DNA of 64,000 bases from Ardenticatenaceae bacterium. GTDB lineage: Bacteria; Chloroflexota; Anaerolineae; Promineifilales; Promineifilaceae. Under the pieces are notes generated by a model. That model saw nothing but the letters and a program-made list of their open reading frames with translations. It ran no database searches and was not told where the DNA came from. The DNA lies in assembly GCA_020634375.1 (NCBI GenBank), contig JACKBX010000013.1, positions 23,127-87,126 of the forward strand, given 5' to 3'. Made by a program: the position numbers and the translations under genes. Positions 10 to 62,249 of this stretch are shown in pieces. The stretch's first letter is position 1; every line of letters begins with the position of its first letter.

Positions 10-3000
10 TTGGCTGAAAAGTATTGGGAGCAAATCCAATACCTGCTCCCCTCCGATTTTCCCCGTGAGAAAGTGTGGCTGGAACTACCTGGCAATTTGA
101 CGGCGATTTATGAGACCATGCAGGCAGATTGGTTAGGAGAATTTGCCACAGCACTGGCACGCCGCACAACGGAAATTGGCTATAAAATCGCTTTTTTTGG
201 CTGGCGTAATGGAGAACCGAGCATAGAAGCGTGGGAAACCAATGGAATGCTGCGCTTGCTGCACTATTGCCAACAATTTCCAGATAATCTGGGGGTTTCG
301 CTGCATGAATTTAGCGGCAGCCTGGACACCATTTCGCCCGACACAGCAGAGAATGAGATCGGCACTTTGAGTTTGGCTCCGCCAGACGGGGAACGGAGTG
401 GCATCGGCCGTTTCCGCCAGTTAGTTCAGGTTTGTCACGAGCAGGACATTACCGTGCCGCCTATCTTCATCAGCGAGTGGGGCTGGACGCGGGAGCGCAT
501 CCCCAACCCTGGGGCGGCGATGGAACACATTGTGCAGGTGAATGAGCAACTGTACAGCAACTACCCAGAAATACGCGGCGCGGCTTTGTGGACGTTGGAC
601 CCGGATGCGGGCGCGGTGGCGGATTCGGTGGCGGATTTGGTACGGCCGTTAACCGAACTAAGCCTCTCCTACCAGTTTGAAATCCACCCCCAAAATGGGG
701 ATTGGTCGGCGAACAGCTATGGGACAGACCCGTTTGTTGAAGAGTATGACGAAGATCCCTCTTTTGAGGAAGTCTCCCAACCAATTAGAGAAGAGGACAT
801 GGGCTATACCCGGCTGCGCTCGGTGATGGCCGATTTTTTCAATGAAGAAGAACTGCGTTCGTTGTGTTTTAATCTGGGTGTCGATTACGAAAATCTTCCA
901 GCGTCGGGCAAAGAAAATAAAGTGCGCGAATTAATCTCTCTAATCCTCACCCAAAGACGCAGTGAAGAGTTAATGGCCGAGTTAATTCGGCAACGTCCAG
1001 AGATTGGTTGGCAAGAAATTGTGTCAGGGCAACTATCGCCACCCGGGTTAGACTATGGACGCATTCGCACACTACCTGCCGTCATTAATGAGAGGTTCGA
1101 TGAAGCAGAACTTCGCAGCTTATGCTTTGAATTAGACGTGGATTATGAAAATTTACCCGCAGTGGGCAAAGCGGATAAAGTGCGGGAATTGGTGTCCTAT
1201 TTTGCCCGGCGGCAGCGTATTCCAGACCTGGCTTTAGCGTTACAACGAATGCGACCAAATGGTTTTTGGGAGGAATGGCTGGAAACAGACACGGCCGTTT
1301 CCACCTCATCATCCCCTCCCCCACAAACCGACTATCTACCGCTAGAAAGCGAAACCTTGCCTGAGTTGACGACACAGCAAACGGCCGTTGCCGACTTCAT
1401 CACCCAAACAGAAGCGCCAGCCATCAAAGGCGCCTTCCCCATCCCCACCAACATGGGCGAAAGCATCGAAAGCCAGATAACAGTAACGCAAGAAGCACGG
1501 CCGTTCCGCGCCTGGCTGGCCCCTTTCTCCGGCGAAGATGATGCGGGGTTCAAAACCATGTTGGCAGAAGATGAACCTTCGTGGCAAACAAATGCAGACG
1601 CCGGAGCCGAAGACATCGTCGCCCTCTATCGTTTGGCTCCGCACAACGAACTAACACACTTGTTCACCGTACAAAGCAGACCTGATGCCGAATCGCCTTT
1701 TCGCCTGCGAAAGGCACATCCGCTTAACCGTTCACTGCCAGAGGCAGAAATCGCCACACATCCGGCCATGCAGGGCTGGAAACCGCCTACCACTGCCGAT
1801 CAGCCGTTGGACTTAACGGCCGTCAACCTCTGGCAGCCCCTGCGCAGCCTCATCGCCGCCTGGAACCCAGACCTGATCGCCGACCTGGCCGAGTGGGAAG
1901 GGTTGACGGAAGAAGATGTGTGGCAAACGGCCGTTACTATCGCCCTGCAAATACCAGACAAAAACGGCCGTCTCCACACCCTTATCTCCCTCATCCAAAA
2001 ACGCCCCAGCACCATCACCAACGACGACCTGCTCAAGCAGTTCAACCTGGAAAGCGAATGGCGTGCCCGCCGCGCTGTCTGGAACACACTCCAACGCCCC
2101 ATCCCCCCAACCATGACTTTGGACGATGCGACAGCCATTTTGCGCAAACATGGCTACACCGACGCAAAAGAACTGTTGCAAAAAATAGATACCTCGTGGG
2201 AATCCATTGAAGACCCGCAACTGCGTGCTCGCGGTCATGCACTGCTGGCGCAAACCTACGAAGGGTTAGGTGATAACAAAAAAGCCCTCACCCAATGGCG
2301 CAAAGCCGCCGAACTCGACCCCGCCAACAGCGCCACCTTTGAAGGCATCGAGCGCTGTACACCAGATAATCAATTAGATAGGTCAGCACAGTTCATCGAA
2401 AAAGTAGCTGCCAAAGCGCCCGACAGTGCCGGGCCAACGGTGGGCATGGCGGCCATCGCGCAGCGGCGCAATGAGTATGAAAAAGCGGCAGAATTGCTAG
2501 AAACGGCCGTGCATCTCACCCAAGATCATGTCGAAAAACAACGCATCGAAACCCGCCGCGAAGTGATTGTGCAATATATCCCGCAAACGGCCGTACCCCC
2601 CGAAACCGCCCTGCATCCCACCCTCGACCCTCGCGAAAAAAGCCTCATCGAATTCCTCATCCGTCACGGCGGCAAAGAAGAAATCCGCCAGTTGTGCGCC
2701 GATCTGGGCATCGACGACGAAGAACTAAGAGAAGACGGCCTTAGCCGCATGGCGCGGGAATTTGTACGCCGCGTCGGTAAAGCCGGTAGATTGGCCGAAT
2801 TAGAAACCCTGGTACGGCAAAACCACCCCCGGCAGGCATTCGTCTTTCAAGAATCCGTACAAGAATTAATTGAAAATGCACAAGCCCTCCTGCCGCACAA
2901 TCCCGCGCAAGTGATTGAGTATTTACGCCAGCAAAAACAAGAATGGGAAATCGGCACAGCGCCGGAACGTGCCGCCATTCACAGCATTTTGGCGCAAGCC

Positions 3001-5541
3001 TTTGCTGCCACCGGCAACCACCGCATGGCCTATGCCCACTGGCAAAATCAGGCCCGCTTGCAGCCCAACGCCGCCAACGCGTTCAACGGCATGGCCGCTG
3101 CCGCACAGCAGCTCGGCGCAGATATGCTAGACAAAGCAGAGACGTGGATGCAGCAATTCAAGCAGCAAAATCCCACAGCCACTGGCCCAGCTATTGGGTT
3201 GGCCGCCATTGCCCAACTGCGCGGCGATTTGACAAAGGCAGCGGAACGACTGACGAACGCCCCCGCAGCCAGCCTGGTGCAGCAAGCGCAAATGGCCCAG
3301 GCTGCCCAACAACTGCTCGCCGCTAAACAAGCACCCCCGCCTGCTGATGACGCAGCGCAAGATGATGATACGGCCGTTCCCCCACCCCCAACCTTCGACC
3401 CAACCCACCTCGCCACACAGCCCAATGGCGAACTGGTCTCCAACCGGTTGAGCCGCACACTAAACGACCTAAGCAGCACGACAACAGGACTAGACGATAA
3501 CGCTCAAGTGCAGATTTTGCGCGAGTTTGTGCAGCAAACGTTGGCGCTGCCCACGCTGTCCGCCGCGCACAAGCAGGACTTGCGCCTGCGCAGCGCCCGC
3601 GTGTTGGCCGAAGCCACGCGCACGCAGCGTGTCACGCCGGAAATGACGACTGAACTGCGCCTACCGGTACTAGATTCGCTCTTTATCACGCAGCCACAGC
3701 AGCGGCGGGCGCTCATTCGCACAGTCAGCAGCTACCGGCAATCTGCCGGGCGGCGGCTGGCGCTGTTCTTACGCGACCAGGCACGCCGTCAAATCCGCAA
3801 AGACCTCGGCGCCAAAAAGGTGGCGGTATTGGTGGATGACAGCACGGCAGAAACGGCCGTACAAGAGGAGTATGATCGCGTGAAAACGGCCGTTTTTAGC
3901 GAAGGCAGCTTCCACCTCCAAAACCAGACCCTACAAACCCTGAGTGATATATGTAAAAGCAAGGATGAGCAGCCGGTGGGAAAATGGCGCACGGCCGTTG
4001 CCAAAAAGACCCTCACCCTCACCGGCAACCTCAACCATGACGTACTCGCCCTCGATTTTAGCCGCTACGACACAGACCCGCGCCAATTTTGGCTGCTGCT
4101 GCACGCCCTACTACACAGCATCGAAGGCCACCTGGCACACCTCGATAGCTGGGAACGCTTCCGGCGCAGCCCACTCCCCGACAGCATCAGCAGCATTCTG
4201 CTGGCCGCCTTCCACCCCGAAACACACCTACCCTACAAGAAACGCCGCGCCGAACAAATGCTGCGCAATTTGGAACTAGACGACAAAGAAACGCAGCTCG
4301 ACTATCGCACTTACATGGAATTTGCCCACAACCTGCTGCACGATCCTGACCTGGGCTTTGATGACCTCGATGATGTTGGCCTCTTTTTATACCAAATGAG
4401 CGGCAACCTGCTCTCTTTCGCGCCCGACCCCGGCGCAGAAATGGATGGACGCTTCACGCTGCATCCTCCTTTAGCCCGTGAAGTTATGCTCAAACCGGCA
4501 CATATTGACACTGCTCTCACCCTGCCGGACAGTGCGTTTGACCAAATCACTTCCGCACTCAATGCGGGCAACCACATCATCCTCATTGGCCCGCCGGGAA
4601 CAGGCAAAACAACGGTCGCGCAAGACATCAGCCGCCTGGCACATGACACCAATTGCAATCGCGGCTTCATTTCTGTGACAGCTACAGCCGATTGGACAAC
4701 GTTTGACACCATTGGCGGCTACATGCCCACGACTGATAATCGCCTTGCCTTCAGTGAGGGCATTGTGCTGCGTGCTATTCGGGAGAAAAAGTGGCTGATT
4801 ATCGACGAAATCAATCGCGCCGAAATTGACAAAGCGTTTGGCGAGATGTTCACAGTGTTATCTGGACAGCCCGTGACTCTGCCCTATCGGGATGGGCATC
4901 ATCCCATCCGCATTTTGCCGCCTGGTTACCCGGCACAAAGTGAAAAGGATTACGTGATTCCGCAAACGTGGCGCGTCATTGGCACGATGAATGTCTACGA
5001 CAAAGCATCGCTGTTTGAAATGTCGTATGCTTTTATGCGGCGGTTCGCTTTTGTGGACGTGGGCATTCCTGATAAAGACACATTCCCGCAGCTTATCAGT
5101 CTATTCTTACGGCAGGTTGATTTAGCGGATGATGACGAGAACGCAATTGCACAAGCACTGCGCGATAAATTATTTCATCACCAGAGCAAAGTGATGCATC
5201 ACCGACCACTGGGACCGGCCATTGCACGAGATATGATCCGTTATATGGCCCGCCGCTGCGAGCAAACCGGCGCGGCTACACCTGACCATGTAGCTGAGGC
5301 GTTTTTGCTGTATGCAGTGCCACAGTTTGATGGACTGGAAGAGCATAAAATTGTGGATGTGGTGAATGAGTTAAAGGATATTTTTACCCCGGCAGCCAAG
5401 ACCACACAGGCTATTTTCCACCGGTTGGAAGAGTTATTCCCGCAGTATCCACTATTGAAGAAGATGAAGGAGGAGGAGGGAGAAACGGCCGTTTCCGACA
5501 CAACTTCAACAGAAAACAAACCCGACAGCGGCCAAGAATAA
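10..5541 (+). CDS. Large multidomain protein that may start upstream of the window. It has a clan GH-A-like hydrolase region, three death-like/effector-associated-domain (EAD)-like repeats, a TPR region and a C-terminal McrB/AAA_5-type NTPase.
   Basis: The frame is open from nt 1. NGEP and ISEWGW lie about 90 aa apart, like a GH-A acid/base plus nucleophile. Three ~65-aa repeats of the form F-x-EEELRSLCF-x-LGVDYENLP-x-GK-x-KVRELI lie at nt ~805-1020, ~1058-1260 and ~2630-2830. TPR-like helices are present (e.g. ALTQWRKAAELDPANS). Walker A GPPGTGKTT is at nt 4589-4615. LIIDEINRAEIDKAFGE and VIGTMNVYD..FMRRFAFV match the E. coli McrB signatures DEINRANLSKVFGE and GLMNTAD..LRRRFSF. Confidence 0.85.
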   Translation: MAEKYWEQIQYLLPSDFPREKVWLELPGNLTAIYETMQADWLGEFATALARRTTEIGYKIAFFGWRNGEPSIEAWETNGMLRLLHYCQQFPDNLGVSLHEFSGSLDTISPDTAENEIGTLSLAPPDGERSGIGRFRQLVQVCHEQDITVPPIFISEWGWTRERIPNPGAAMEHIVQVNEQLYSNYPEIRGAALWTLDPDAGAVADSVADLVRPLTELSLSYQFEIHPQNGDWSANSYGTDPFVEEYDEDPSFEEVSQPIREEDMGYTRLRSVMADFFNEEELRSLCFNLGVDYENLPASGKENKVRELISLILTQRRSEELMAELIRQRPEIGWQEIVSGQLSPPGLDYGRIRTLPAVINERFDEAELRSLCFELDVDYENLPAVGKADKVRELVSYFARRQRIPDLALALQRMRPNGFWEEWLETDTAVSTSSSPPPQTDYLPLESETLPELTTQQTAVADFITQTEAPAIKGAFPIPTNMGESIESQITVTQEARPFRAWLAPFSGEDDAGFKTMLAEDEPSWQTNADAGAEDIVALYRLAPHNELTHLFTVQSRPDAESPFRLRKAHPLNRSLPEAEIATHPAMQGWKPPTTADQPLDLTAVNLWQPLRSLIAAWNPDLIADLAEWEGLTEEDVWQTAVTIALQIPDKNGRLHTLISLIQKRPSTITNDDLLKQFNLESEWRARRAVWNTLQRPIPPTMTLDDATAILRKHGYTDAKELLQKIDTSWESIEDPQLRARGHALLAQTYEGLGDNKKALTQWRKAAELDPANSATFEGIERCTPDNQLDRSAQFIEKVAAKAPDSAGPTVGMAAIAQRRNEYEKAAELLETAVHLTQDHVEKQRIETRREVIVQYIPQTAVPPETALHPTLDPREKSLIEFLIRHGGKEEIRQLCADLGIDDEELREDGLSRMAREFVRRVGKAGRLAELETLVRQNHPRQAFVFQESVQELIENAQALLPHNPAQVIEYLRQQKQEWEIGTAPERAAIHSILAQAFAATGNHRMAYAHWQNQARLQPNAANAFNGMAAAAQQLGADMLDKAETWMQQFKQQNPTATGPAIGLAAIAQLRGDLTKAAERLTNAPAASLVQQAQMAQAAQQLLAAKQAPPPADDAAQDDDTAVPPPPTFDPTHLATQPNGELVSNRLSRTLNDLSSTTTGLDDNAQVQILREFVQQTLALPTLSAAHKQDLRLRSARVLAEATRTQRVTPEMTTELRLPVLDSLFITQPQQRRALIRTVSSYRQSAGRRLALFLRDQARRQIRKDLGAKKVAVLVDDSTAETAVQEEYDRVKTAVFSEGSFHLQNQTLQTLSDICKSKDEQPVGKWRTAVAKKTLTLTGNLNHDVLALDFSRYDTDPRQFWLLLHALLHSIEGHLAHLDSWERFRRSPLPDSISSILLAAFHPETHLPYKKRRAEQMLRNLELDDKETQLDYRTYMEFAHNLLHDPDLGFDDLDDVGLFLYQMSGNLLSFAPDPGAEMDGRFTLHPPLAREVMLKPAHIDTALTLPDSAFDQITSALNAGNHIILIGPPGTGKTTVAQDISRLAHDTNCNRGFISVTATADWTTFDTIGGYMPTTDNRLAFSEGIVLRAIREKKWLIIDEINRAEIDKAFGEMFTVLSGQPVTLPYRDGHHPIRILPPGYPAQSEKDYVIPQTWRVIGTMNVYDKASLFEMSYAFMRRFAFVDVGIPDKDTFPQLISLFLRQVDLADDDENAIAQALRDKLFHHQSKVMHHRPLGPAIARDMIRYMARRCEQTGAATPDHVAEAFLLYAVPQFDGLEEHKIVDVVNELKDIFTPAAKTTQAIFHRLEELFPQYPLLKKMKEEEGETAVSDTTSTENKPDSGQE

Positions 5542-5567
5542 AGCCATGCTAACATGCTAACAGCCTC

Positions 5568-5596
5568 TTGACTTCCATGACGCGCTGTGTTATATT
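5568..5596 (+). promoter_or_regulatory. Sigma70-like promoter for the phasin-like gene
   Basis: TTGACT (5568-5573), 17-nt spacer, TATATT (5591-5596). A second ATGACGC..GTTATAAT copy lies just downstream. Confidence 0.5.
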
Positions 5597-5660
5597 CTTT
5601 ATGACGCAACGCGTTATAATTGCAAATATAACAAGGATTTAGACCCTTTGGAGGCATAAA

Positions 5661-5942
5661 ATGGCAAAGAAACAAGAAGCGACTGTAGAAGTCGTAGTGG
5701 AAGAAGTAGCAGAAAAGAAAAATGTACTATTTGACACAGCTCACAAAGCACTCCTGATTGGCTTTGGGGTTATCGGCATGAGCCAAGACTTCATCGTGGA
5801 TGGTCGGGAAGAGATGAACAAATTGTTTGACAAACTCGTTGGTCGTGGCGAAGAAATGGAAAAAGAGAGCCGCGAATGGGTTCAAGATGTCATGAAGCGC
5901 AACAAGAAAGTCGAAGAAGAAGTTGCCGTGGAAATGGCATAA
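5661..5942 (+). CDS. Small phasin-like (PHA granule-associated family-like) protein
   Basis: GGAGG RBS before the ATG. The charged helical sequence ..ALLIGFGVIGMSQD..EEMNKLFDKLVGRGEEMEKE.. resembles the phasin_2 pattern. A terminator follows. Confidence 0.55.
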   Translation: MAKKQEATVEVVVEEVAEKKNVLFDTAHKALLIGFGVIGMSQDFIVDGREEMNKLFDKLVGRGEEMEKESREWVQDVMKRNKKVEEEVAVEMA

Positions 5943-5968
5943 GCAAACTCCTTTCATCAAGCGCAAAG

Positions 5969-5999
5969 AGGGAGATGGATCAAACCATCTCCCTTTTTG
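5969..5999 (+). terminator. Rho-independent terminator
   Basis: Stem AGGGAGATGG / CCATCTCCCT, loop ATCAAA, then a T-run. Confidence 0.65.
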
Positions 6000-6031
6000 T
6001 TTCTATGCTCTGTCACACTTCGCTTAAAAAA

Positions 6032-6415
6032 TCAGGTACTAACTGGCAAACCTAAGATTTCCACCACTTTCTCGCGCAATTCCTTAGGCATGAATGGCTT
6101 GGTCATATACGCTGTCACATCCTGCAAGTGAGCGATAACGCGATGCGTGGCACTGGTTTGGGCAGTCAGGACAATCACACTTGTAGGTTGGCGTTCCCAG
6201 GTGTGAATTTCTTTCAATACATTCCAGCCATTAATGTCTGGTAACATAATATCCAGAATCAATAAATCAGCCTGATAGTGGCGCAGTAACTCGATGGCTT
6301 CCTGGCCTGTTTTGGCGTGGCGTAGCTGAATAGGTAGACTTGCCAGCGTAAGGCGAATAATCTCAAAGAGATCTTGGTCATCTTCTACACTCACGATGCA
6401 GGGTACGTTGCTCAT
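6032..6415 (-). CDS. Single-domain response regulator (CheY-like receiver)
   Basis: VEDDQD.., LLILDIMLPDINGW, LTAQ and YMTKPF are canonical receiver motifs. Confidence 0.85.
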   Translation of the reverse strand: MSNVPCIVSVEDDQDLFEIIRLTLASLPIQLRHAKTGQEAIELLRHYQADLLILDIMLPDINGWNVLKEIHTWERQPTSVIVLTAQTSATHRVIAHLQDVTAYMTKPFMPKELREKVVEILGLPVST

Positions 6416-6620
6416 AACTATCCCTTTTAGTAGACTACGCTAAGGCGCTGATTACAAGCGTAATAGATCAAATGCGTTGCGTCAAGACAAGAGAGTTATT
6501 GCGTGGTTGTTCTTAGGAACCGCGCTCTTTCCAAGAAACACAGTCCTGCAAAAATTTAAATACTACCGCAATAAACCACCTACAATGTTATTGCATGGGG
6601 CAAGCCAAGGAGAATGATTT

Positions 6621-7562
6621 ATGGGTGAATACGCAGTTGAAGTTCATGATTTGCATAAAGATTTTGGCGAGGTCTACGCGGTCAAAGGCGTTTCCTTCAA
6701 TGTGCAGAGGGGAGAAATATTTAGCCTGTTGGGGCCGAACGGGGCGGGCAAAAGTACGACTATTTCCATGTTGGCCTGCTTACAACGGCCGTCCCAAGGG
6801 GATGCACTTGTGATGGGACATTCGGTAACGGCCGTTCCCCAACAAGCCAAAGCAGCCCTCGGCATCGTCCCCCAAGAAATCGCTCTATACGATGATTTGT
6901 CAGCCCGCGAAAACCTCGATTTTTGGGGCAAAATGTACGGCTTACGCGGCGCAGCATTGCAAAAACAGGTTGATGACGTGCTAGAACTGATTGGCCTGAC
7001 CGACCGGCAAAAAGGGCGCATCGGCAAATTCTCCGGCGGGATGAAACGGCGTGTCAACATCGGCGCGGCGCTGCTGCACAAGCCAGACATTATCATCATG
7101 GATGAGCCGACTGTGGGCATCGACCCGCAAAGCCGCCGTCACATTCTGGATGGGGTAAAAGCGTTGAACCAACAGGGGATGACCGTTTTGTACACGACCC
7201 ATTACATGGAAGAAGCGCAGGAACTTTCCGACCACATCGCCATTATGGATCAGGGCGAGATCATCGCCTTGGGCACGCACGGTGAATTGGTGCGGATTGT
7301 GGGTGAACAGGATCGGATTGATTTGCGTATCAACGCCCCCTCGGAGTTGGTGATGGCGCACTGGCAAGAAGTCCCCGGTGTTTCACAGGTCACGGCCGAT
7401 GATGGCCTGATTTCGCTTCTGGCTGATGACAGCAACGTAGTTTTGCCCCGTTTGTTTGAAGTGGCAACGGCCGTTAACGTGCGCATCACCTCAGTAGAAA
7501 TTCAGGAACCCAACCTGGAAACCGTCTTCCTGCACCTCACCGGGCGGGCCTTGCGGGATTAA
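6621..7562 (+). CDS. ABC transporter ATP-binding protein (ABC-2 exporter type)
   Basis: Walker A GPNGAGKST, signature FSGGMKRRV, Walker B IIIMDEPT. AAGGAG RBS. Confidence 0.9.
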   Translation: MGEYAVEVHDLHKDFGEVYAVKGVSFNVQRGEIFSLLGPNGAGKSTTISMLACLQRPSQGDALVMGHSVTAVPQQAKAALGIVPQEIALYDDLSARENLDFWGKMYGLRGAALQKQVDDVLELIGLTDRQKGRIGKFSGGMKRRVNIGAALLHKPDIIIMDEPTVGIDPQSRRHILDGVKALNQQGMTVLYTTHYMEEAQELSDHIAIMDQGEIIALGTHGELVRIVGEQDRIDLRINAPSELVMAHWQEVPGVSQVTADDGLISLLADDSNVVLPRLFEVATAVNVRITSVEIQEPNLETVFLHLTGRALRD

Positions 7563-7565
7563 ATC

Positions 7566-8888: not shown

Positions 8889-8906
8889 AAAAATAAGGAT
8901 TATTTC

Positions 8907-10136
8907 ATGCGCGTTGTGGATTTAGCAATTAAAGATTTGCGGCAGATTTTACGGGAACGGCAGTCGGCATTTTTTTTGTTGATTATGCCTGTGGTCTTTA
9001 CGCTGCTTTTTGGCTTTGCCTTTGGCGGATTTGGCGGCGGTGATGATGAAGACCCACGACTGCCGGTAGGTTTTCTCAACCAGGATGCGGGCACGGTCTC
9101 TGAGGATCTGGTCACGCTCCTGGCACAATCTGACGTAATCCGGCTGGTAACAGACACGATGGATGTGGCCGACCTGGAGACGCAAGTTAAAGATGGCGTC
9201 ACCGCTGCCGCTGTCATTGTTCCCGCCGGGTACGGCCAACACATGACGGCTGGCGAACTGGTTCCACTGACGGTGATCGTTGATTCGGGCAATGCCAGTG
9301 GGATAACGGCTCAAGAGGAAGTGACGGCGGCTGTCACCCGATTGTTGAGCGCTTTGCAAACGGCACAGGTGGGAATGGAAACGGCCGTCTCCCAAAACGT
9401 CATCTCGGAGAGCGACAAACCCGCCTATTTTGAGACCACATTAGCCCGCGCCATCACCGCCTGGGCCGCACCGCCCATACAAGTGGCAGTCTCGCAATCA
9501 GGGGCGGTGGATGAAAGTGGAACGGAAACGGCCGTTTCCAGCGACAACGCCTTCGCCCACTCCTCCCCCGGTATGATGGCTCAATTCGCCATCGCTGGTC
9601 TGATCACCGCAGCGCAAATTCTGGTATTGGAACGGAAAAGCGGCTCCCTGCGCCGCTTGTTGACGACTGATATGTCACGCGGCAGCATTTTACTGGGCCA
9701 TTACCTGGCGATGTTTGTCACGATTTTAGCCCAACTGTTCATTCTCATCTTGTTCGGGCAGTTGTTCCTCAAACTGCCCTACTTTCAGGAACCGGCGGCA
9801 ACACTGCTGCTAACCGTCGCTTCGGCGCTGTTTGCCGCCAGTTTGGGCCTGCTCATTGGCGCATTAGCGCAATCGGAGGAGCAGGCCATCATCTTCTCGC
9901 TGGTGCCGATGTTTGTGCTGGCCGGTCTAGGAGGAGCCTGGGTTCCACTGGAATTTACGCCAGAAGGGTTTCAGCGCATCGCTTTTTTTACACCTATAGC
10001 CTGGATGATGGATGGATTCAAAGATATTATTGTGCGCGGTTTGGGCTTGGAAGCGGTGTTGTTGGCAACGGCCGTTCTCATCATCTACGCCATCATCTTT
10101 TGGGGATTGGCCGCCTGGCGCTTCCGATTTGAGTAA
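8907..10136 (+). CDS. ABC-2 family transporter permease (second subunit)
   Basis: Same architecture as the preceding permease. AAGGA RBS. Confidence 0.8.
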   Translation: MRVVDLAIKDLRQILRERQSAFFLLIMPVVFTLLFGFAFGGFGGGDDEDPRLPVGFLNQDAGTVSEDLVTLLAQSDVIRLVTDTMDVADLETQVKDGVTAAAVIVPAGYGQHMTAGELVPLTVIVDSGNASGITAQEEVTAAVTRLLSALQTAQVGMETAVSQNVISESDKPAYFETTLARAITAWAAPPIQVAVSQSGAVDESGTETAVSSDNAFAHSSPGMMAQFAIAGLITAAQILVLERKSGSLRRLLTTDMSRGSILLGHYLAMFVTILAQLFILILFGQLFLKLPYFQEPAATLLLTVASALFAASLGLLIGALAQSEEQAIIFSLVPMFVLAGLGGAWVPLEFTPEGFQRIAFFTPIAWMMDGFKDIIVRGLGLEAVLLATAVLIIYAIIFWGLAAWRFRFE

Positions 10137-10163
10137 GTTGAAATTCCGTGTTTTTCAGTCAAC

Positions 10164-11348
10164 TCAATGATGAAACAGGCGGGTATGCGTCATCACCATG
10201 ACCATACCATATTCATCACACGCTTGAATGACGGCTTCGTCGCGCAGGGAACCGCCAGGCTGGGCTACATAACGCACGCCGCTTTGCCTGGCGCGATCAA
10301 TGCTGTCACGGAAGGGGAAGAAGGCGTCAGAACCGAGGGCGATGCCTGTGAATTGACTGATCCAGGCTTGTTTTTCTGCGGGGGTGAGGCGCTGGGGAAC
10401 GGCCGTAAACTTCTCCAACCACGCTGCTTCTTCTGCCGGGGTTAGTTGATCTAACAAAAACTGGTCAATGGCATTATCACGCTCCGGGCGGCTGAGGCGC
10501 GGACGGAACGGCAATGCTAATACACGCGGGTGCTGTCGTAAAAACCAGGTGTCTGCTTTACCGCCCGCCAACCGCGTGCAATGAATACGTGATTGCTGCC
10601 CTGCGCCCACGCCGATAACTTGCCCATTGTAAGCGTAGCACACAGAGTTGGATTGCGTATATTTCAAGGTGATGAGCGCGACGATCAGGTCACGGATGGC
10701 ACTTTCAGGTAAGGCCTGGTTTCGTGTCACGATGTTCTGGAAATCGGCGGGGGTGGAAACGGCCGTGTTCCGCTGCTGCGCCATCGTTACACCAAACACT
10801 TCTCGCTGTTCCAGTTCTGGCGGTTCGTAGTCAGGATCAATTTGTACAATGCGATACCCCCCACCCTTTTTTTGCCGCAAAATCTGCAACGCTTCTGGCT
10901 CGTAGCCGGGTGCAATCACGCCGTCAGACACTTCACGTTTAATAAGCTGTGCGGTAGGAGCATCAACCGGGTCGCTTAGCGCAACCCAATCACCAAAGGA
11001 GGAAATACGGTCTGCGCCGCGAGCGCGAGCATAGGCTTCGGCCAGTGGTGATAATTCCATAGTTCCCACTAAGTAGGCCTGTCGCAATGTATCATTGAGG
11101 GGAACGGAAACGGCCGTACCCGCCGGGCTTACATGCTTAAATGAAGCAGCAGCAGGCATATTCAATGTCTGCCGCAGTTCTCGCACCAACTGCCAGGAAT
11201 TCAACGCATCCAATAAATTAATAAACCCAGGCTGTCCATTCAGCACCTGAATTGGCAGCTTTCCCTGGTGCACCCAAACTCGCGCCGGTTTCTGGTGCGG
11301 ATTCATGCCATAGCGTAATTCCAATTCTTCACCCATGATTTCCTCCAT
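10164..11348 (-). CDS. purH: AICAR formyltransferase-domain protein (C-terminal half of a split PurH)
   Basis: LRYGMNPHQ near the N-terminus, and QSRIHCTRLA..GSDAFFPFRD..GV..V.QPGGS, are typical of the AICARFT domain. Its ATG directly abuts the TAA of the upstream ORF. Confidence 0.85.
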   Translation of the reverse strand: MEEIMGEELELRYGMNPHQKPARVWVHQGKLPIQVLNGQPGFINLLDALNSWQLVRELRQTLNMPAAASFKHVSPAGTAVSVPLNDTLRQAYLVGTMELSPLAEAYARARGADRISSFGDWVALSDPVDAPTAQLIKREVSDGVIAPGYEPEALQILRQKKGGGYRIVQIDPDYEPPELEQREVFGVTMAQQRNTAVSTPADFQNIVTRNQALPESAIRDLIVALITLKYTQSNSVCYAYNGQVIGVGAGQQSRIHCTRLAGGKADTWFLRQHPRVLALPFRPRLSRPERDNAIDQFLLDQLTPAEEAAWLEKFTAVPQRLTPAEKQAWISQFTGIALGSDAFFPFRDSIDRARQSGVRYVAQPGGSLRDEAVIQACDEYGMVMVMTHTRLFHH

Positions 11349-11945: not shown

Positions 11946-11961
11946 AAGGGGGAACGGCCGT

Positions 11962-12612
11962 CTAGCTCACCAGCTTTTCAAATTCTACTTGGATAGCCTG
12001 GTAATGCGCCAATTTTTTGTCTACGCGACAGGCCCTGGCTGCGGCCGTGAAGTAAGTATGTTCCTGCAAAAATTCCAATTGAAAATGCAGCCACTCCCTA
12101 TCCGTCATTGACTGCCCATAATTCGCCATTTCCTGTCGCAACTGCCGATTGCGAATAAGAAAATCATCCCGCCCCAACACATCCAGATCGGCATCAGCTA
12201 AAATTTCCTCCAGCAAATTGCGCGGGGACTGTGGCAATCGCGTCGCCATGATCAACCCCATCACACGTTCAATCTGCCGATCCGAAAAACCAAACTGCGG
12301 CAACGTTTGAGCGGCTTCACGAGCACTTGCAATCTCATGCCCTTCTGTTGTGTAAACAAAACCCACATCATGATACGCAGCAGCAACCCGCAATAAAATC
12401 ATATCATCTTCTGCAATACCACTAGCATCCGCCAAACGAAGTGCAGCAGGAATAACGTCGTTTTCTGTGTGCCATAAATTATGGTACGTCAGTTGAGGGT
12501 CTAGGTTGCCACGCAACTGGTTAACCGCATGTGCAACAGCTTGTTCATAATTAGGTCGAACAGTCAAAGAAAAACCTCTTTCTCTTAACCATTTGATTTT
12601 TTGCTGCCCCAT
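11962..12612 (-). CDS. HD-domain phosphohydrolase
   Basis: H..WHTE and AAAYHDVGF (HD motif). The start was chosen at MGQQKIKW. Confidence 0.75.
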   Translation of the reverse strand: MGQQKIKWLRERGFSLTVRPNYEQAVAHAVNQLRGNLDPQLTYHNLWHTENDVIPAALRLADASGIAEDDMILLRVAAAYHDVGFVYTTEGHEIASAREAAQTLPQFGFSDRQIERVMGLIMATRLPQSPRNLLEEILADADLDVLGRDDFLIRNRQLRQEMANYGQSMTDREWLHFQLEFLQEHTYFTAAARACRVDKKLAHYQAIQVEFEKLVS

Positions 12613-13045
12613 GTAACAGCAAACCAAAATAATGGCAGGGCAAAGGAATAGCTTACAAAAAATTCTTGCACGAACACTTTAACACAAGTAACAACCCCAC
12701 AAAAGTTCAATAGATTACACTAATCAACTCTGACTTTTATTTTCGCATTGGCCAGAGCATATTAGCAACCAGGTCCTATTCAAAAAAACCTCTTTTCTGC
12801 CAGACTCCAAACGGCAAAAAGTCAGGCAAAAAAGCAGCAAGGATTATCTTGAACCAATCGAGAAACCATTTTGACTTCCTTACTGTTAAATTATTAACAT
12901 TGATTCTTTTGGTAACGATCCATTATACTGAATGAGTTGTAAGTTATTTTATCATTCACTACCCTTCTTAGCTTCACCCCACAGCACCACCCCATTGCAA
13001 GCAAGACATCTCAAGTCACTGTTACGATCCGTTTGGTTGATAAGT

Positions 13046-13951
13046 ATGCTTCAAATTTCCCTATTGGGTCGCTTCCATGCTTCCTATGATGGTCAACCTG
13101 TTAAGGGCATTGACGGCCTTAAAGTTCAAGAACTATTTAGTTACTTGCTATTACATCGCAATCGGCCTCATTCTCGAAATATGTTGGCTTGCCTTCTTTG
13201 GGAAGATGGTTCTCCCGCCCAAGGTAAAAGTTACCTCCGCAAAACTTTATGGCAGTTGCAATCAGCGTTGGATAGTTTGCCCATAGGCACGACTTCTTCC
13301 CTGTTACTAGCCGATTCGAATTGGATCGAGTTAAATCCCCAGGTTGAGTTTTGGCTAGACGTCGCTATGTTTGAAGAAGCCTGCCATCATGTCAGTGCTA
13401 TTAGCACATCTAAATTGACCCGTTCTCTGGCAAATGAATTACGCCAAGCGGTTGACTTATATAGTGGCGACCTACTTGATGGTTGGTATCAGGATTGGTG
13501 TCTATTTGAGCGGGAACGTTTGCAGCATATCCATTACATGATGCTGCAAAAACTCATGGATTTCTGTGAAGAGCATAGTGAATATGAGGCTGGTATTGAG
13601 TACGGTATGCGCATCTTGCGAAGTGATCTAGCCCGTGAGCGTACCCATCGCAGCTTGATGCGACTACATTACCTGGCGGGCAATCGCACAGAAGCGCTGC
13701 GCCAATATGAACGTTGTGCGGCTGTACTACGCCAGGAATTGGACGTGGAACCCGACCAACACACGCTTACGCTTTACAAGCGGATTCAGGCGGCACTTCC
13801 ACTAGCAACAGAAGAAGAATTAGCTCTTCCCGCTTTCATCTTGGATACGCGAGTAGATAAGCTGAAGCAATTGCAATCTTTCCTTGATACGCTTTCTATA
13901 AAGGTCAAGCAAGAAATTCAAACTATTGAGACCAATAATCCCCGCGCTTAA
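13046..13951 (+). CDS. SARP/AfsR-DnrI family transcriptional regulator (winged-helix plus BTAD)
   Basis: MLQISLLGRF..YDGQPV.., R..LACLLWED..A...LRKTLWQL, and the BTAD pattern Y.GDLL.G.Y.DW...ERERL......R.HR.LMRLHYL.GNRTEALRQYERC...L..EL.VEP. The start is set at the ATG at 13046. Confidence 0.8.
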   Translation: MLQISLLGRFHASYDGQPVKGIDGLKVQELFSYLLLHRNRPHSRNMLACLLWEDGSPAQGKSYLRKTLWQLQSALDSLPIGTTSSLLLADSNWIELNPQVEFWLDVAMFEEACHHVSAISTSKLTRSLANELRQAVDLYSGDLLDGWYQDWCLFERERLQHIHYMMLQKLMDFCEEHSEYEAGIEYGMRILRSDLARERTHRSLMRLHYLAGNRTEALRQYERCAAVLRQELDVEPDQHTLTLYKRIQAALPLATEEELALPAFILDTRVDKLKQLQSFLDTLSIKVKQEIQTIETNNPRA

Positions 13952-14113
13952 ACTTCTTGTTGCTCTTTTCCTGCTTGGTTTATTCACACTTGATACGCTT
14001 CAGGGTATGCAATAACAACGCCAGCAGATACGGCCGTTTGCTACGCTACAGTCCATTCTATTCCACATAGATGCCTGCTATCAACAATCTGCTCACGGGG
14101 CTAGTGAATCAAG

Positions 14114-14320
14114 TTGACACCGCTCGAAGATACCACCCATTCCTTCATCATTCGCATATGGCCTGAAGAAACAACTGACACGGGTCAGAAGTACAAATGG
14201 CGTGGCCACATTACCCATGTTCCCAGCGGGCAGCGACGCTATTTTGAACAGGTAAATATTGTGCCTAAATTCATTGCACACTTTCTGCAAACCAACAATT
14301 TCTTGATAGAAAAACCTTAA
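14114..14320 (+). CDS. Small hypothetical protein (FIIRIW..WRGHITHVPSGQRRYF motif), TTG start
   Basis: The ORF sits directly downstream of the SARP gene. The motif resembles small conserved ORFs that I recall from actinobacteria and cyanobacteria. No RBS is evident. Confidence 0.35.
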   Translation: MTPLEDTTHSFIIRIWPEETTDTGQKYKWRGHITHVPSGQRRYFEQVNIVPKFIAHFLQTNNFLIEKP

Positions 14321-14385
14321 GTAATCCGTTTCCTCACTTCAAGAAGCTGGCGAAAGATCATTCTCACACAATCTACTTATTTTTC

Positions 14386-14414
14386 GTGACAGACTGAAAA
14401 AACTGAGGTAATAT
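14386..14414 (+). promoter_or_regulatory. Candidate sigma70-like promoter
   Basis: GTGACA, 17-nt spacer, TAATAT. Confidence 0.35.
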
Positions 14415-14420
14415 ATGTGC

Positions 14421-14629
14421 AAGTGTGATCGGGTAAGGGTCTAAGGGAAAACTCCTCCCCCCAAAAACTGGCACGAAAGAAACGCGACTGGAACAACCTG
14501 GTCACATCGAGGGTAATGTCTCCCTCTCCCTTGACCCTGACATTATCCGTTAGCTCAACGCACCTCCCTCCTGGTGCCTGGGCAACAAACAAAAACCGTT
14601 TTCCTTTTGGGAAACGGTTTTTGTCTTTT
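14421..14629 (+). ncRNA. Candidate ~210-nt structured RNA or terminator-containing 5-prime leader upstream of the 14730 membrane-protein gene
   Basis: No credible ORF on either strand. Internal hairpin GGTAATGTC..GACATTATCC. Ends in a strong intrinsic terminator about 100 nt before the next start codon. Confidence 0.3.
14591..14629 (+). terminator. Intrinsic terminator (potentially bidirectional)
   Basis: 14-bp stem AAAAACCGTTTTCC / GGGAAACGGTTTTT, loop TTTT, flanked by an A-run and a T-run. Confidence 0.6.
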
Positions 14630-14729
14630 ATATACCCATTCGCAACTTCCAATCTTGTTGCCCGTATAGACCACCAAATATACCAATTGTTAGGAAACAA
14701 TCTTCAATTGATTGCCCGGAGGTTTCATC

Positions 14730-15155
14730 ATGAACGAAGAAATTGACAGCTTGAAAGAAGCTGAAAAAGAAATTTTTGAAAACGATATAGCAACAGACAC
14801 AAAGCAAAGACCCCTACAGCGTCACCATCATTCAGATGGAAACTTAGTTGCTGGCGTGGTGCTGGTGGCGGTAGGCGGGATTTTCTTGCTCACAAACTTA
14901 ACAGGGTTGACCATTAACAATTGGTGGGCACTGTTTATTCTAATTCCAGCCTTCTCGAACTTCAAACGGGTGTGGCGGGGTTATCAGGCAAACGGCCGTC
15001 TCACCCATTCAACGCGTGGCTCTCTGACAGGCGGCTTCATTCTTACCCTGGTCGCATCTGTTTTCCTCTTTGATGTAATGACCTGGGACATCGTCTGGCC
15101 CATTTTTCTGATCATTCTCGGCATCAACGCCTTATTAGGTAGCTGGTTCGACTAG
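14730..15155 (+). CDS. Small integral membrane protein (LiaF/DUF-like multi-TM)
   Basis: GGAGG lies 7 nt before the ATG at 14730. Four predicted hydrophobic helices (VAGVVLVAVGGIFLL, WWALFILIPAF, GGFILTLVASVFLF, IVWPIFLIILGINALLG). Confidence 0.7.
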   Translation: MNEEIDSLKEAEKEIFENDIATDTKQRPLQRHHHSDGNLVAGVVLVAVGGIFLLTNLTGLTINNWWALFILIPAFSNFKRVWRGYQANGRLTHSTRGSLTGGFILTLVASVFLFDVMTWDIVWPIFLIILGINALLGSWFD

Positions 15156-15600
15156 CCTCACTATCAAAAGAATAGACAACGGCCGTAGAAGGGATGCATT
15201 CCATTTCTACGGCCGTTTTTGTTTGGGGTGGTAGGATACGGCCGTTTCCCAATTCCGCTTCGTGGGCATCCATCAACGTCAATAAATCCACCGTCTCCAC
15301 CTCATCGGCAGGAATCACAGGAACAACCCCCTCAACCAACTCTCCCTCAATGATGTCTGCACCGAAATCCGGGCGACGTATCCCATTAACCAAGACCACG
15401 CCCACCGTGGCAAATACCTTTCCCACTCGCAGCGCCTCCTTCAAGTCTAATCGTACCTGGGTATCCACAAACGTTGTATCCGTCAAAGAAAACAATACTC
15501 CATTTCCAGCTACATATCCTCCGGCAACCTTTGCCGCCAGACCATGTACAGCTAAAACCTGGTCAATGGTATTACACATCAATTCCAACTGCGTCTTCAT
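15124..15600 (-). CDS. Hypothetical protein
   Basis: Protein-like composition, whereas the opposite-strand ORF is S/T/P-rich junk. The 3-prime end runs through the terminator of the convergent gene, so its extent is uncertain. Confidence 0.5.
   Translation of the reverse strand: MKTQLELMCNTIDQVLAVHGLAAKVAGGYVAGNGVLFSLTDTTFVDTQVRLDLKEALRVGKVFATVGVVLVNGIRRPDFGADIIEGELVEGVVPVIPADEVETVDLLTLMDAHEAELGNGRILPPQTKTAVEMECIPSTAVVYSFDSEASRTSYLIRR
15179..15221 (+). terminator. Intrinsic terminator whose stem is made of two ACGGCCGT copies
   Basis: ACGGCCGTAGAA .. TTCTACGGCCGT followed by TTTTT. Confidence 0.6.
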
Positions 15601-15785
15601 TCAATCACTCATTCACTTATTTCAAGATACTTCCATTGTAGTTCCAGAGCTTCAGAGTAACCGTCCAATTTGAGAAAAGATGAAGTGAAAAAGAGGTAAA
15701 AGGGAAACAGATTGACAAAACAGAACATTTGAACCAGAATGCAATAGCATCCGAAACAAGTAAATTGCTTGAGTAAGGAGAACCC

Positions 15786-40216: not shown

Positions 40217-40335
40217 CTCTTGGCAATGACCTACTCTCCCAGGGGGTCGCCCCCCAAGTACCATCGGCGCTGACGAGCTTAACTACCGGGTTCGGGATGG
40301 TACCGGGTGTACCCTCGTCGCTCAAATCACCAAGA
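40217..40335 (-). rRNA. rrf: 5S rRNA
   Basis: The reverse complement reads TCTTGGTGATTTGAGCGACGAGGGTACACCCGGTACCATCCCGAACCCGGTAGTTAAGC..GGGAGAGTAGGTCATTGCCAAGAG. A T-run follows. Confidence 0.85.
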
Positions 40336-40417
40336 GACCTTCTCTTAAATCACTATTTGTTAATTTACTATAATAACCAACTACAACCAACTGCCAGAAT
40401 ACCGAGTTCTCCGTACC

Positions 40418-43358
<2,941 letters not shown>

Positions 43359-43545
43359 ACACATGATACGGAGAATTCGATATTCTCGCTTTCTACGTGT
43401 TCTTCAACTTGTGTTCTTTACTATTGGTTGTGTTATTTGGTTATTAAAGTACTTTCAGCAGCTTCTATTGTGTAAGATGCTGATGAGTGCCACATATTCT
43501 TGTAGCACTCATCAATGCCCTACATCCAAATTCTAATCAAGCAAA

Positions 43546-43618
43546 TGGAGATGAGGAGACTCGAACTCCTGACCTCCGCCGTGCAAAGGCGGCGCTCTCC
43601 CAACTGAGCTACATCCCC
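43546..43618 (-). tRNA. tRNA-Ala (anticodon UGC), CCA not encoded
   Basis: Reverse complement: GGGGATGTAGCTCAGTTGGGAGAGCGCCGCCTTTGCACGGCGGAGGTCAGGAGTTCGAGTCTCCTCATCTCCA. Confidence 0.9.
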
Positions 43619-43682
43619 GGAGTTAGAAACAAAGGGTATTGATGCAACCCTCTCCTCTTTTGCCCACTCTAAGCTGTAAACA

Positions 43683-43756
43683 TGGGCCTGGTTGGACTCG
43701 AACCAACGACCTCTCCCTTATCAGAGGAACGCTCTAACCGGCTGAGCTACAGGCCC
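43683..43756 (-). tRNA. tRNA-Ile (anticodon GAU)
   Basis: Reverse complement: GGGCCTGTAGCTCAGCCGGTTAGAGCGTTCCTCTGATAAGGGAGAGGTCGTTGGTTCGAGTCCAACCAGGCCCA. Confidence 0.9.
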
Positions 43757-43867
43757 TCCTTCATACCTTTAAAAACTGAAGAGTGACAGGAAATGCATTA
43801 CCCTATCATCCTATTCGGATGATTGACCTGGGAGTTTGTATTATCTCTCGATAATACGGTACTCCAT

Positions 43868-45372
<1,505 letters not shown>

Positions 45373-45611
45373 GAAAGTTTTTTTCCGTTTGCTAACGGAA
45401 CTACTTTTATCTCTTAATCTTACAGGGTTCCGCTTCCCTGTCACTCTTCAGTTGTTAAAGGTCAATCTATCAAAGTTGCGCTGTCAAATAGGGCACAAAA
45501 AAGAACGGCCCCTTTTACTCGGAGTTACCGCTCTTTGCGATTTGCGCTACTATTATTTTGTAATGATGCCTCGCACTTGTGCGTTCGCATCTTTATCAGC
45601 GACAAGGATTT

Positions 45612-51229: not shown

Positions 51230-51230
51230 C

Positions 51231-60882: not shown

Positions 60883-61021
60883 GTCTGCTCCAAGATTAAA
60901 GATTGAGGGATAGCCCATTATGGGCAGCAATGACCCTGGCGTCAACTACAAGTAAAAGGGAATGAAGGCTAAGAATCACAGCTTACGCAGTCACAAAATG
61001 CGTCCTCTGCCTGATCTTATT

Positions 61022-61186
61022 ATTCACTCACTGAGTGAATGGCATTATGACACTGTCATAAATAATTATGACAGTGTGAAAATAATTTTTGACAGTGTCA
61101 TAATTATTTTTGACACTGTCAAAACCAAATTATACACTGTGAAATATAGACCTTCTCAGTGAGTACCATAAAGCATCTCACTGAGA
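61022..61186. promoter_or_regulatory. Array of five TGACA-N-TGTCA palindromes phased at exactly 21 bp, flanked by CTCA-N-TGAG palindromes (operator or iteron-like)
   Basis: Palindrome centres lie at 61053, 61074, 61095, 61116 and 61137. ATTCACTCA-C-TGAGTGAAT is at 61022-61040 and TCTCA-C-TGAGA at 61176-61186. AT-rich spacers. Confidence 0.6.
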
Positions 61187-61262
61187 CAATATTGTCTTTA
61201 GCCTAATAAACGCTTTCTGGTAAACTGGCAGCGGTAAACAACTTGACTACGGAGGCATCAAG

Positions 61263-62249
61263 ATGCACAAAGTTCGTTGGGGTCTGCTTTCTACTGCGAA
61301 TATCAACCGGCGTCTGATTCCGGCTATTCAGATGAGCGCACGCGGGGAGTTAACGGCCGTTGCCAGCCGCACCCTCCCCGCCGCCCAAACCTACGCTGCC
61401 CAATGGGGAATCCCCCGTGCCTTTGGCAGCTACGAAGCCATGCTGAACTCAGACGAAATTGACGCCGTGTACATCAGCCTGCCCAACCATCTGCACGCCG
61501 AATGGAGCGTTTACGCCCTGCGGCATGGCAAGCATGTCCTTTGCGAAAAACCCTTTGCGCTCACGCTGGATGAGGTAGACGCAATGACCGAGGCGGCGCA
61601 AGAAACTGGCAATATCCTTGCCGAGGCCTTCATGTACCGCCACCACCCGCAAACTAAAATCGCTAAAGCGTGGGTGGATGACGGCCGTCTAGGCGACATA
61701 ACCCTGCTGCGTGGTGCATTCAACTTTGCCTTTCGCAGCCGCGAGAACGTGCGCCTGGTTCCCGAATATGGCGGCGGCTGTTTGTGGGATGTAGGCATCT
61801 ACCCCCTCAGTCTGGCCCAATTCATCATGGGCGGGCCACCGCAGTGGGTGATGGGCAGCCAATGGATTGGCGACACAGGTGTGGATGAGTTTTTTGCCGG
61901 GCAGATGGGATATGGGAACGGCCGTATCGCCCAAATCACCGCCTCCTTCAACACCCCCTTTTACACCTTCGCCGAAATCATCGGCACACAGGGGCGGCTG
62001 ACGATGAATCGGCCGTTTGTCGGCCACAATGACGGCCAGCGCCAAATGCTTTTCCATCCTGCAAACGGCGAACCGCAAGAAATCCCCGTCCCCCAAAAAG
62101 AACTTTACCTCGGCGAAGTGGAGGACATGCACGCCGCCATTTTAGATGGCGCACCCAATTACCTCACCCTCACCGAAACGCGCAACCACATCAAAACCGC
62201 CCTCACCCTCTACGAATCCGCCCGCACCGGGCAGAAGTGTAGAGTATAG
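61263..62249 (+). CDS. Gfo/Idh/MocA-family oxidoreductase
   Basis: VRWGLLSTANI..R.IPA N-terminal Rossmann motif and the EKP motif (LCEKPFALT). GGAGG RBS. Confidence 0.85.
   Translation: MHKVRWGLLSTANINRRLIPAIQMSARGELTAVASRTLPAAQTYAAQWGIPRAFGSYEAMLNSDEIDAVYISLPNHLHAEWSVYALRHGKHVLCEKPFALTLDEVDAMTEAAQETGNILAEAFMYRHHPQTKIAKAWVDDGRLGDITLLRGAFNFAFRSRENVRLVPEYGGGCLWDVGIYPLSLAQFIMGGPPQWVMGSQWIGDTGVDEFFAGQMGYGNGRIAQITASFNTPFYTFAEIIGTQGRLTMNRPFVGHNDGQRQMLFHPANGEPQEIPVPQKELYLGEVEDMHAAILDGAPNYLTLTETRNHIKTALTLYESARTGQKCRV

Follow-up and report, generated by a model that had tools for sequence, protein, structure and literature searches.

The DNA examined here is a stretch of 64,000 nucleotides (the window) from contig JACKBX010000013.1 of an Ardenticatenaceae bacterium (assembly GCA_020634375.1), and the element under study is the 8-bp palindrome ACGGCCGT, which is dispersed through it. 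Apart from two giant open reading frames (ORFs), the genes of the window are ordinary ones for housekeeping and transport. A preliminary description of this DNA had likened the element to HIP1 (GCGATCGC), the highly iterated palindrome (HIP) of cyanobacteria, and had put its number by hand at about 114 between positions 642 and 61925, with 20 copies as the lowest acceptable figure. An exact search returned 114 copies, well above that limit, the first at 642–649 and the last at 61918–61925. As the preliminary description had also stated, they lie both within genes and between them. The features referred to below are as follows.

642..61925, no strand: dispersed exact copies of ACGGCCGT, 114 in number (107 coding, 7 intergenic), with starts at:
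642, 1291, 1381, 1497, 1816, 1927, 1964, 2503, 2587, 3370, 3853, 3886, 3991, 5485, 6785, 6828, 7467, 7926, 8007, 8196,
9381, 9528, 10068, 10399, 10759, 11110, 11954, 14030, 14992, 15179, 15209, 15238, 15981, 16659, 17218, 17417, 17524, 18022, 18132,
18682, 18839, 18883, 19127, 19269, 21482, 21860, 23240, 25421, 25668, 26798, 26834, 27752, 27950, 27989, 28685, 28802, 29291, 29924, 29963,
30355, 30860, 31164, 31352, 31877, 32387, 33870, 34034, 35171, 35327, 35558, 36344, 36518, 37013, 37136, 37346, 37484, 37514, 38507, 39800,
46312, 46608, 47109, 47457, 48790, 48954, 49182, 50023, 50350, 50580, 50814, 51049, 51517, 52337, 52402, 52747, 52918,
54391, 54561, 54682, 54756, 55802, 55989, 56238, 56424, 56805, 56989, 58117, 59132, 59203, 59495, 60263, 61353, 61681, 61918
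9524..9539: sole perfect 16-bp extension, GGAAACGGCCGTTTCC, within an ABC-2 permease gene
10164..11348, minus strand: purH-C (AICAR formyltransferase), with motif sites at 10399, 10759 and 11110
11962..14991: AT-rich segment (GC 0.45) with HD-domain and SARP-like genes; motif 1 versus 6.4 expected, P = 0.013
15179..15225, plus strand: intrinsic-terminator-like hairpin, arms ACGGCCGTAGAA ... TTCTACGGCCGT from two motif copies, then TTTTTGTTT
40218..45374, minus strand: ribosomal RNA (rRNA) operon (5S, 23S, two tRNAs, 16S); motif 0 versus 10.8 expected, P = 2e-5
61926..64000: motif-free tail, 0 versus 4.4 expected, P = 0.013, with a CRISPR-like array and a serine recombinase gene

The null for the count consisted of 100 dinucleotide-preserving shuffles and of Markov models of order 0 to 4. 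The shuffles held 1.02 copies on average and four at most, and the order-0 model predicted 1.2, in line with the single copy per 64 kb from which the preliminary description had argued. Expectations of 1.8 (order 2), 3.8 (order 3) and 12.4 (order 4) followed, giving observed-to-expected (O/E) ratios of 93–112 at order 0–1, 62 at order 2 and 30 at order 3; the prediction neared the observed count only if the model was built from the word's own 6- and 7-mers. The density amounts to 1.8 copies per kb (~1780 per Mb), and the 8-mer table of the window is headed by ACGGCCGT and words overlapping it. Other GC-rich 6-bp palindromes are strongly avoided in the window, including GCCGGC (2 versus 29 expected), GGGCCC (0 versus 13.5), CCGCGG (3 versus 23), TGGCCA (4 versus 30) and GGCGCC (8 versus 35), so that a single hyper-abundant palindrome stands out all the more. 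CGATCG is likewise absent (0 versus 6.6 expected) and GATC has an O/E of 0.54. The avoidance suggests heavy restriction-modification pressure.

The A..T flank is present on 114 of the 128 CGGCCG hexamers of the window, and all 24 one-mismatch neighbours of ACGGCCGT sum to 23 copies. The preliminary description had the octamer often extended towards GGAAACGGCCGTTTCC, and this stands in part: A is preferred at −1 and T at +1 through a real effect on the DNA itself, and 53 of the 70 valines read from the motif (76%) use GTT, compared with 20% elsewhere. The longer extension calls for qualification: perfect palindromic extensions comprise only 27 10-mers, three 12-mers, two 14-mers and the one 16-mer, found where it had been reported, and the outer GG..CC preference varies with codon phase. 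The flanks are otherwise unrelated, the best match between any two sites being 12–18 of 20 flank bases. Spacing in the window is near-exponential (coefficient of variation 0.96); a regular spacing was considered and rejected, the coefficients of 0.70–0.75 in the relative L007 and the phage contig L198, both described below, being only marginally under-dispersed.

The three readings anticipated for the coding copies (T-A-V, N-G-R and x-R-P-x) account for all 107 of them: 70 are read as T-A-V, 23 as [N/D/Y/H]-G-R and 14 as x-R-P-x, with 94% of all copies in frame inside genes. The motif encodes 70 of the 71 Thr-Ala-Val tripeptides of the window (as ACG-GCC-GTn) and 23 of its 25 [NDYH]GR tripeptides, where codon usage predicts approximately 12%. 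In the window proteins TAV has an O/E of 7.8, the reverse peptide VAT 0.99 and the one-step neighbour SAV 0.14. Hence ACGGCCGT is a word at the level of DNA; it is not a mobile repeat, and it is not a peptide or codon effect.

To follow the word beyond the window, 80 loci around purH were retrieved from species-representative genomes with the separate formyltransferase (PurH-C) protein. The source genome is sampled by one 64-kb window and each relative by at most ~22 kb, and motif density was measured on the window plus ~210 kb from relatives. Within the window, purH is divided into two adjacent genes (10164–11945), the IMP cyclohydrolase part at 11349–11945 and the AICAR formyltransferase part at 10164–11348. 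At column 249 of the PurH-C alignment, outgroups have GCGGCGGT (AAV), some clade members have GCGGCCGT, and four clade members, namely the source genome, L008, L004 and L009, have ACGGCCGT (TAV); at column 618, seven clade members read T-A-V and the other genomes D-A-L/I. The orthologue columns examined form substitution series and contain no indels, which indicates that the sites were made in place, including by non-synonymous changes in a conserved enzyme. As far as the alignments go, sites evidently arise in place by point substitution, some of it amino-acid-changing.

Retention was assessed by a test patterned on that of Xu et al. (PMC5861425), with phase-matched 8-mers as controls. Compared with L082 (79% nucleotide identity), 12 of 12 window sites were kept, the control values being 15–22%, or 22–34% where the amino acids were identical. 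At 69% identity (L085), 12 of 28 and 12 of 21 sites were common to both (43–57%), with controls at 6–23%, and many sites were gains or losses specific to one lineage. The conservation in related genomes that the preliminary description had proposed to look for is therefore present, and once formed the sites evidently outlast, on these comparisons, the sequence around them by far. Among three assemblies (L082–L084) of the close relative there was one variable site in 6.2 kb, and so no signal of polarity.

In 14 of the 80 purH loci no other palindromic 8-mer is as common as ACGGCCGT, which has 0.7–1.9 copies per kb there; L033 shows a moderate rise (0.49 per kb), and the remaining loci are essentially free of the word. 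Pooled, the clade has 376 sites in 276 kb, compared with 4 in 403 kb of sister lineages with similar GC content. The motif-bearing genomes group as one clade in a neighbour-joining tree of PurH, a single-gene tree without support values, and by this tree the trait would mark out a single clade of Ardenticatenaceae/Promineifilaceae-like genomes. Additional relatives, identified by way of GlgX, have 0.8–1.8 motif copies per kb (L207–L209) or ~1.4 per kb in the coding part (L206). HIP status could not be read from the TAV counts of 120 proteins homologous to GlgX, as the GlgX motif sites lie outside the TAV phase. In L209 (4421–5214), the 14 copies of GTGCGCAC were considered as a second iterated palindrome and rejected, being an intergenic tandem array with a 51-bp period.

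Nested inside the motif-bearing clade is L007, an Anaerolineae metagenome-assembled genome (ACE_NR_CHLO5; JAMLHW010000001.1, positions 1–15453), in which 31 dispersed copies of TCGGCCGA (2.0 per kb) are found and ACGGCCGT does not occur in 15.4 kb. In its proteome TCGGCCGA encodes 15 of 17 SA[E/D] tripeptides, SAE and SAD are enriched 4–6-fold, and TAV is at background. These observations point to a derived switch of the outer pair, from A..T to T..A, followed by full decay of the old word. Among the pooled one-mismatch variants (one-offs), 161 of 220 deviate at positions 1 or 8; the one-off rate at these positions (G and T) is 3–5 times that of HIP-negative relatives, and 0.2–0.8 times at inner positions. 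The specificity has two layers: the CGGCCG core hardly varies, and the outer A..T pair is less strict.

A pattern scan of IMG/VR listed, among its matches, contigs with 2–4 copies of ACGGCCGT per kb. One group (L198/L330; IMGVR_UViG_3300020036_009192 and relatives) is a tailed phage with ~2 motif copies per kb that encodes large terminase, portal, head-morphogenesis and major capsid proteins; its 31–34 copies are dispersed, and some lie inside the terminase, portal and capsid genes. Plasmid-like or phage-accessory contigs (L102/L164, L147 and L086), with genes for ParA, FtsK-like, Ant, PAPS-reductase and DnaC-like proteins, have 3–3.7 copies per kb. In the phage and the plasmid-like contigs TAV shows an 8–15-fold excess and is 94–100% motif-encoded. 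A terminase search for diverged relatives of L198 returned only contigs that were 97–100% identical. Upstream of the terminase, L198/L330 encodes WbqC-like, PIG-L deacetylase-like and glucosyltransferase-like proteins, with a sub-threshold hit to Lar (restriction alleviation); these genes might indicate DNA modification or anti-restriction functions. The one apparent viral match to TCGGCCGA among the matches listed, L318, was discarded, its 11 copies being a 33-nt tandem repeat in one ORF.

Several local features of the window bear on the behaviour of the word. The hairpin formed by the copies at 15179 and 15209 (15179–15216) is predicted to fold at −29.1 kcal/mol (z = −6.4), a stability reached by none of 200 shuffles; it is followed by a U-run (UUUUUGUUU) and sits just 3′ of the ORF at 14712–15155, in keeping with the terminator stem that had been proposed from the sequence. 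The three motif-poor regions named at the outset in the preliminary description, that is, the rRNA operon, the AT-rich segment and the last 2 kb, also bore out under the expectations given in the list above. The rRNA operons of the relatives L085 and L206 have no ACGGCCGT either. Genes of the AT-rich segment gave no tblastn match in L008, the nearest syntenic relative, and the segment was probably acquired recently or is under a different composition. In the tail, the CRISPR-like array (62511–62852) has five repeats of ~37 nt with a period of 73 nt and is preceded by a zone of 21/28-nt short repeats (62302–62414); a serine recombinase/invertase gene (63078–63710) comes after it, and neither cas genes nor a Tn3 transposase were found within the 64-kb window.

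A contig of assembly GCA_020432585.1 (JAGQFY010000221) is identical to the window across 11.6 kb, and L081, the otherwise identical contig of that assembly, has a DDE transposase (1–1072) in place of the rRNA operon; either a break in the assembly or a difference between strains could account for this. In L206 (1284–6895; GCA_053489695.1, labelled Thermoflexus hugenholtzii) the 23S rRNA gene is broken into pieces, and the four LAGLIDADG homing-endonuclease ORFs lying between these suggest introns; the 23S gene of the window (40423–43360) is uninterrupted. Both giant ORFs carry the motif at ~2.4 per kb. The product of the first (10–5541) exceeds 1843 aa, combines three EAD7 effector-associated domains with an AAA_5 ATPase and looks like a conflict-system protein; the second (25202–38032) encodes a 4276-aa surface protein with beta-helix and immunoglobulin-like regions.

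The data show a process that is site-autonomous and directional, with a specificity that is heritable and switchable, and that acts on all long-resident DNA, namely chromosomal genes, phages and plasmid-like elements. We tentatively favour the reading, which we hold to be somewhat short of probable, that ACGGCCGT is the HIP of an Ardenticatenaceae-like Chloroflexota clade and that its agent is a CGGCCG-directed modification together with a correction bias. The force would be a site-autonomous, sequence-specific bias inside the cell, acting on any resident DNA. In its likeliest form, a DNA methyltransferase of the CGGCCG family would act together with a mismatch-correction bias of the kind that Elhai proposed for HIP1 (PMC4390886), and either the enzyme or a partner would read the outer base pair. 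Such a bias would restore damaged sites and turn near-cognate words into the cognate one, and purifying selection at the protein level would then filter where sites settle; tolerance of T-A-V by this selection would explain why the T-A-V reading dominates. Single sites would need no function at the level of the gene, and pairs may sometimes be co-opted as terminator stems. Modification and repair are favoured because near-total saturation of peptides and non-synonymous gains are hard to obtain through per-site selection among thousands of copies. The methyltransferase model is supported by the outer-base switch, since the recognition domains of methyltransferases typically undergo such changes in flanking-base specificity.

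Several observations weigh against this reading. The window, ~300 kb of clade DNA and the sampled parts of mobile elements, all of them small fractions of the genomes, yielded no candidate gene, whether for a methyltransferase, for a Vsr-like protein or otherwise. Regular-expression and Pfam searches for C5 and N4/N6 methyltransferases and Vsr in the window, the clade loci and the motif-rich mobile elements had the L013 enzyme described below as their only hit and found nothing in phage L330. Variants with T for C at the cytosine positions are not specially depleted, so a simple Vsr-type drive from T:G to C:G is not enough; a Vsr-type signature was accordingly rejected, the excess of C2>T one-offs not being significant compared with HIP-negative genomes. 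We know of no experiment that has demonstrated a repair bias driving non-synonymous changes into conserved enzymes. The motif is denser in some mobile elements than in the host, which fits selection on the elements at least as well; since these contigs were chosen from IMG/VR by a pattern favouring high motif density, their being denser than the host is not to be over-read. Finally, Xu et al. (PMC5861425) take a like conservation of HIP1 as selection and not replenishment. A motif-bearing genome, L013, has an ORF of ~1100 aa (13140–16442) for a type IIG-like restriction/N6-adenine methyltransferase with an NPPY motif, an enzyme unlikely to be related to the palindrome.

A broader form of the modification-and-correction reading, possible in our view if rather doubtful, is that a dedicated writer/reader/repair system homogenises an 8-bp word in all resident DNA, be it chromosome, plasmid or phage, like a gene drive at the level of sequence and with a specificity that can be flipped, and that it arose independently of the HIP1 system or was exchanged with it. 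If this were true, phyletic profiling across the two phyla would identify the machinery and settle what HIPs are.

The word could instead be a selected signal of self that a host protein reads, either in Chi-like recombination or as an anti-degradation or defence-sparing mark, with a small benefit per copy and with chromosomes and mobilome both under selection. The tailed phage and the plasmid-like contigs, at host-like or higher density, would suit such a signal, as would the conserved positions, the complete loss of the old word where the outer pair switched and the paucity of the motif in foreign-looking DNA; in Synechococcus PCC 7002, moreover, methylated HIP1 raised the efficiency of transformation and recombination in a Chi-like manner (bioRxiv 10.1101/2024.09.10.611283). 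We nevertheless judge this unlikely. With thousands of copies, the benefit of each would be too small to account for 70 of 71 TAV or for the changes from Ala to Thr and from D-A-L to T-A-V in PurH; a palindrome has no orientation, unlike known Chi sites; the spacing is random; and no reader protein is known.

A molecular drive through DNA uptake, in which competence prefers the word (possibly in methylated form) and homologous recombination spreads the alleles that carry it, as in the Neisseriaceae and Pasteurellaceae, seems to us distinctly improbable. Its logic is set out in PMC1939737, and it agrees with the density of ~1–2 per kb, the distorted proteome, the inverted pair that serves as a terminator and the depletion in foreign-looking DNA; a preprint also correlates the abundance of HIP1 with DNA-uptake genes (10.64898/2026.06.24.733823). 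Equal saturation of phage terminase, portal and capsid genes and of plasmid-like elements would not readily be reached in this way. Known uptake sequences are depleted in prophages and islands, and they are asymmetric. That phage structural genes carry the motif argues against a drive by transformation uptake alone, a result that constrains models because it is hard to square with pure uptake-sequence drive.

Selection for chromosome architecture, with ACGGCCGT as the site of a nucleoid-organising protein as Xu, Lawrence and Durand proposed for HIP1, has in its favour that positions in coding DNA are conserved above controls, which mirrors PMC5861425; near-complete saturation of every compatible peptide exceeds any architectural need, spacing within the window is random and a phage capsid module has the motif at equal density, and we regard this explanation as very improbable. 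Least credible by far, and already contradicted by the codon-phase, tripeptide, purH and flank data, is a cause other than at the DNA level, whether a miniature mobile repeat or a by-product of T-A-V selection or codon usage, for although the motif is many times repeated and most copies read T-A-V, only 8–10 bp are common to the copies, 94% of them are in frame within genes, the purH columns show substitutions only, all three phases and intergenic DNA are in use, VAT is at expectation, codon usage predicts ~12% and not 99%, and the word is a perfect palindrome.

To our knowledge, HIP1 has been known for approximately 30 years without agreement on either its mechanism or its function, and all comparisons have stayed within a single phylum. 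Chloroflexota would add an independent second HIP as a natural replicate, one whose core differs, whose outer base has switched cleanly in a nested lineage and which is enriched in phage and plasmid-like DNA; genes whose presence goes with a HIP in each phylum and which differ between ACGGCCGT and TCGGCCGA lineages would be strong candidates for the machinery. The word is also a sharp compositional marker for binning, for assigning phages and plasmids of the clade to their hosts and for spotting recently acquired DNA. Because it reshapes proteins, with TAV ~8-fold over-represented, it has a bearing on how protein evolution is modelled in these genomes.

Among known systems, Dcm/Vsr of Escherichia coli offers a methyltransferase target, CCWGG, made more frequent by a sequence-specific bias of mismatch repair. 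The effect there is well under 10-fold and concerns only T:G mismatches at the methylated cytosine, whereas ACGGCCGT is sharpened ~100-fold at all eight positions and its T-for-C neighbours are not specially depleted. Repetitive extragenic palindromes (REPs) and miniature inverted-repeat transposable elements are likewise palindromic and highly repeated, and are extragenic units of at least 20 nt conserved beyond their core (20–40 nt with conserved flanks for REPs); ACGGCCGT is 8–10 bp long, 94% intragenic and set in unrelated flanks. The DNA uptake sequences and uptake signal sequences of Neisseria and Pasteurellaceae come closer, in that they occur at ~1 per kb, accrue by substitution, distort the proteome, form terminators as inverted pairs, are scarce in foreign DNA and have been explained by molecular drive (PMC1939737). 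These are asymmetric 9–12-mers, under-represented in mobile DNA and tied to a competence receptor; ACGGCCGT is a palindrome that saturates phage structural genes, at ~2 per kb in the phage and 3–3.7 in the plasmid-like contigs.

The likeness to HIP1 is the most extensive, and ACGGCCGT displays every HIP hallmark that was testable here. Both are GC-rich palindromic octamers built as N-[6-bp palindromic core]-N′, and ACGGCCGT is top-ranking and hyper-abundant in the window and in relatives' loci: HIP1 reaches hundreds to ~2700 copies per Mb with an O/E of 55–228 (PMC4390886), and the window has ~1780 per Mb with an O/E of ~30–110. Both are dispersed in all frames and in intergenic DNA; ACGGCCGT is not part of a longer repeat, and its positions are conserved above controls as are those of HIP1 (PMC5861425). 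HIP1 contains a methyltransferase core inside the 8-mer, its deviations are biased to positions 1 and 8, it often lies within a 10-mer, and it has derivatives that keep the core, such as TCGATCGA (PMC4390886); here too the one-offs favour positions 1 and 8, 10-mers are frequent, and spread through the clade is accompanied by a derivative that keeps the 6-bp core. Several differences set the two apart. The core is CGGCCG here and CGATCG, which the window lacks, in HIP1; the hosts are Chloroflexota and not Cyanobacteria; and enrichment in phage and plasmid-like elements is documented for ACGGCCGT. With no internal GATC there is no role for a Dam-like DmtA, and Elhai's "G-meC" rule does not apply, the base before the first cytosine of the core being A (T in L007) and not G. 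A periodicity of 10–90 kb has been described for HIP1 (Xu et al. 2018). Searches of the literature available in full text found no description of ACGGCCGT or of any Chloroflexota HIP, a provisional result as most subscription journals lie outside their coverage, and the earlier suggestion of a HIP-like element of new sequence is upheld to that extent.

The alternate HIPs of cyanobacteria (TCGATCGA, GGGATCCC and CAGGCCTG) provide the parallel to L007, as there too a nested lineage swaps the word for a derivative; GCGATCGC and TCGATCGA differ only at positions 1 and 8, just as ACGGCCGT and TCGGCCGA do (PMC4390886, PMC5861425), and CAGGCCTG shares its GGCC centre with ACGGCCGT. Two words coexist in some cyanobacteria, whereas the old word is absent from L007. 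Its excess of ~100 times over chance in a genome, its relatives and their phages makes ACGGCCGT a counterpart of HIP1 outside the cyanobacteria.

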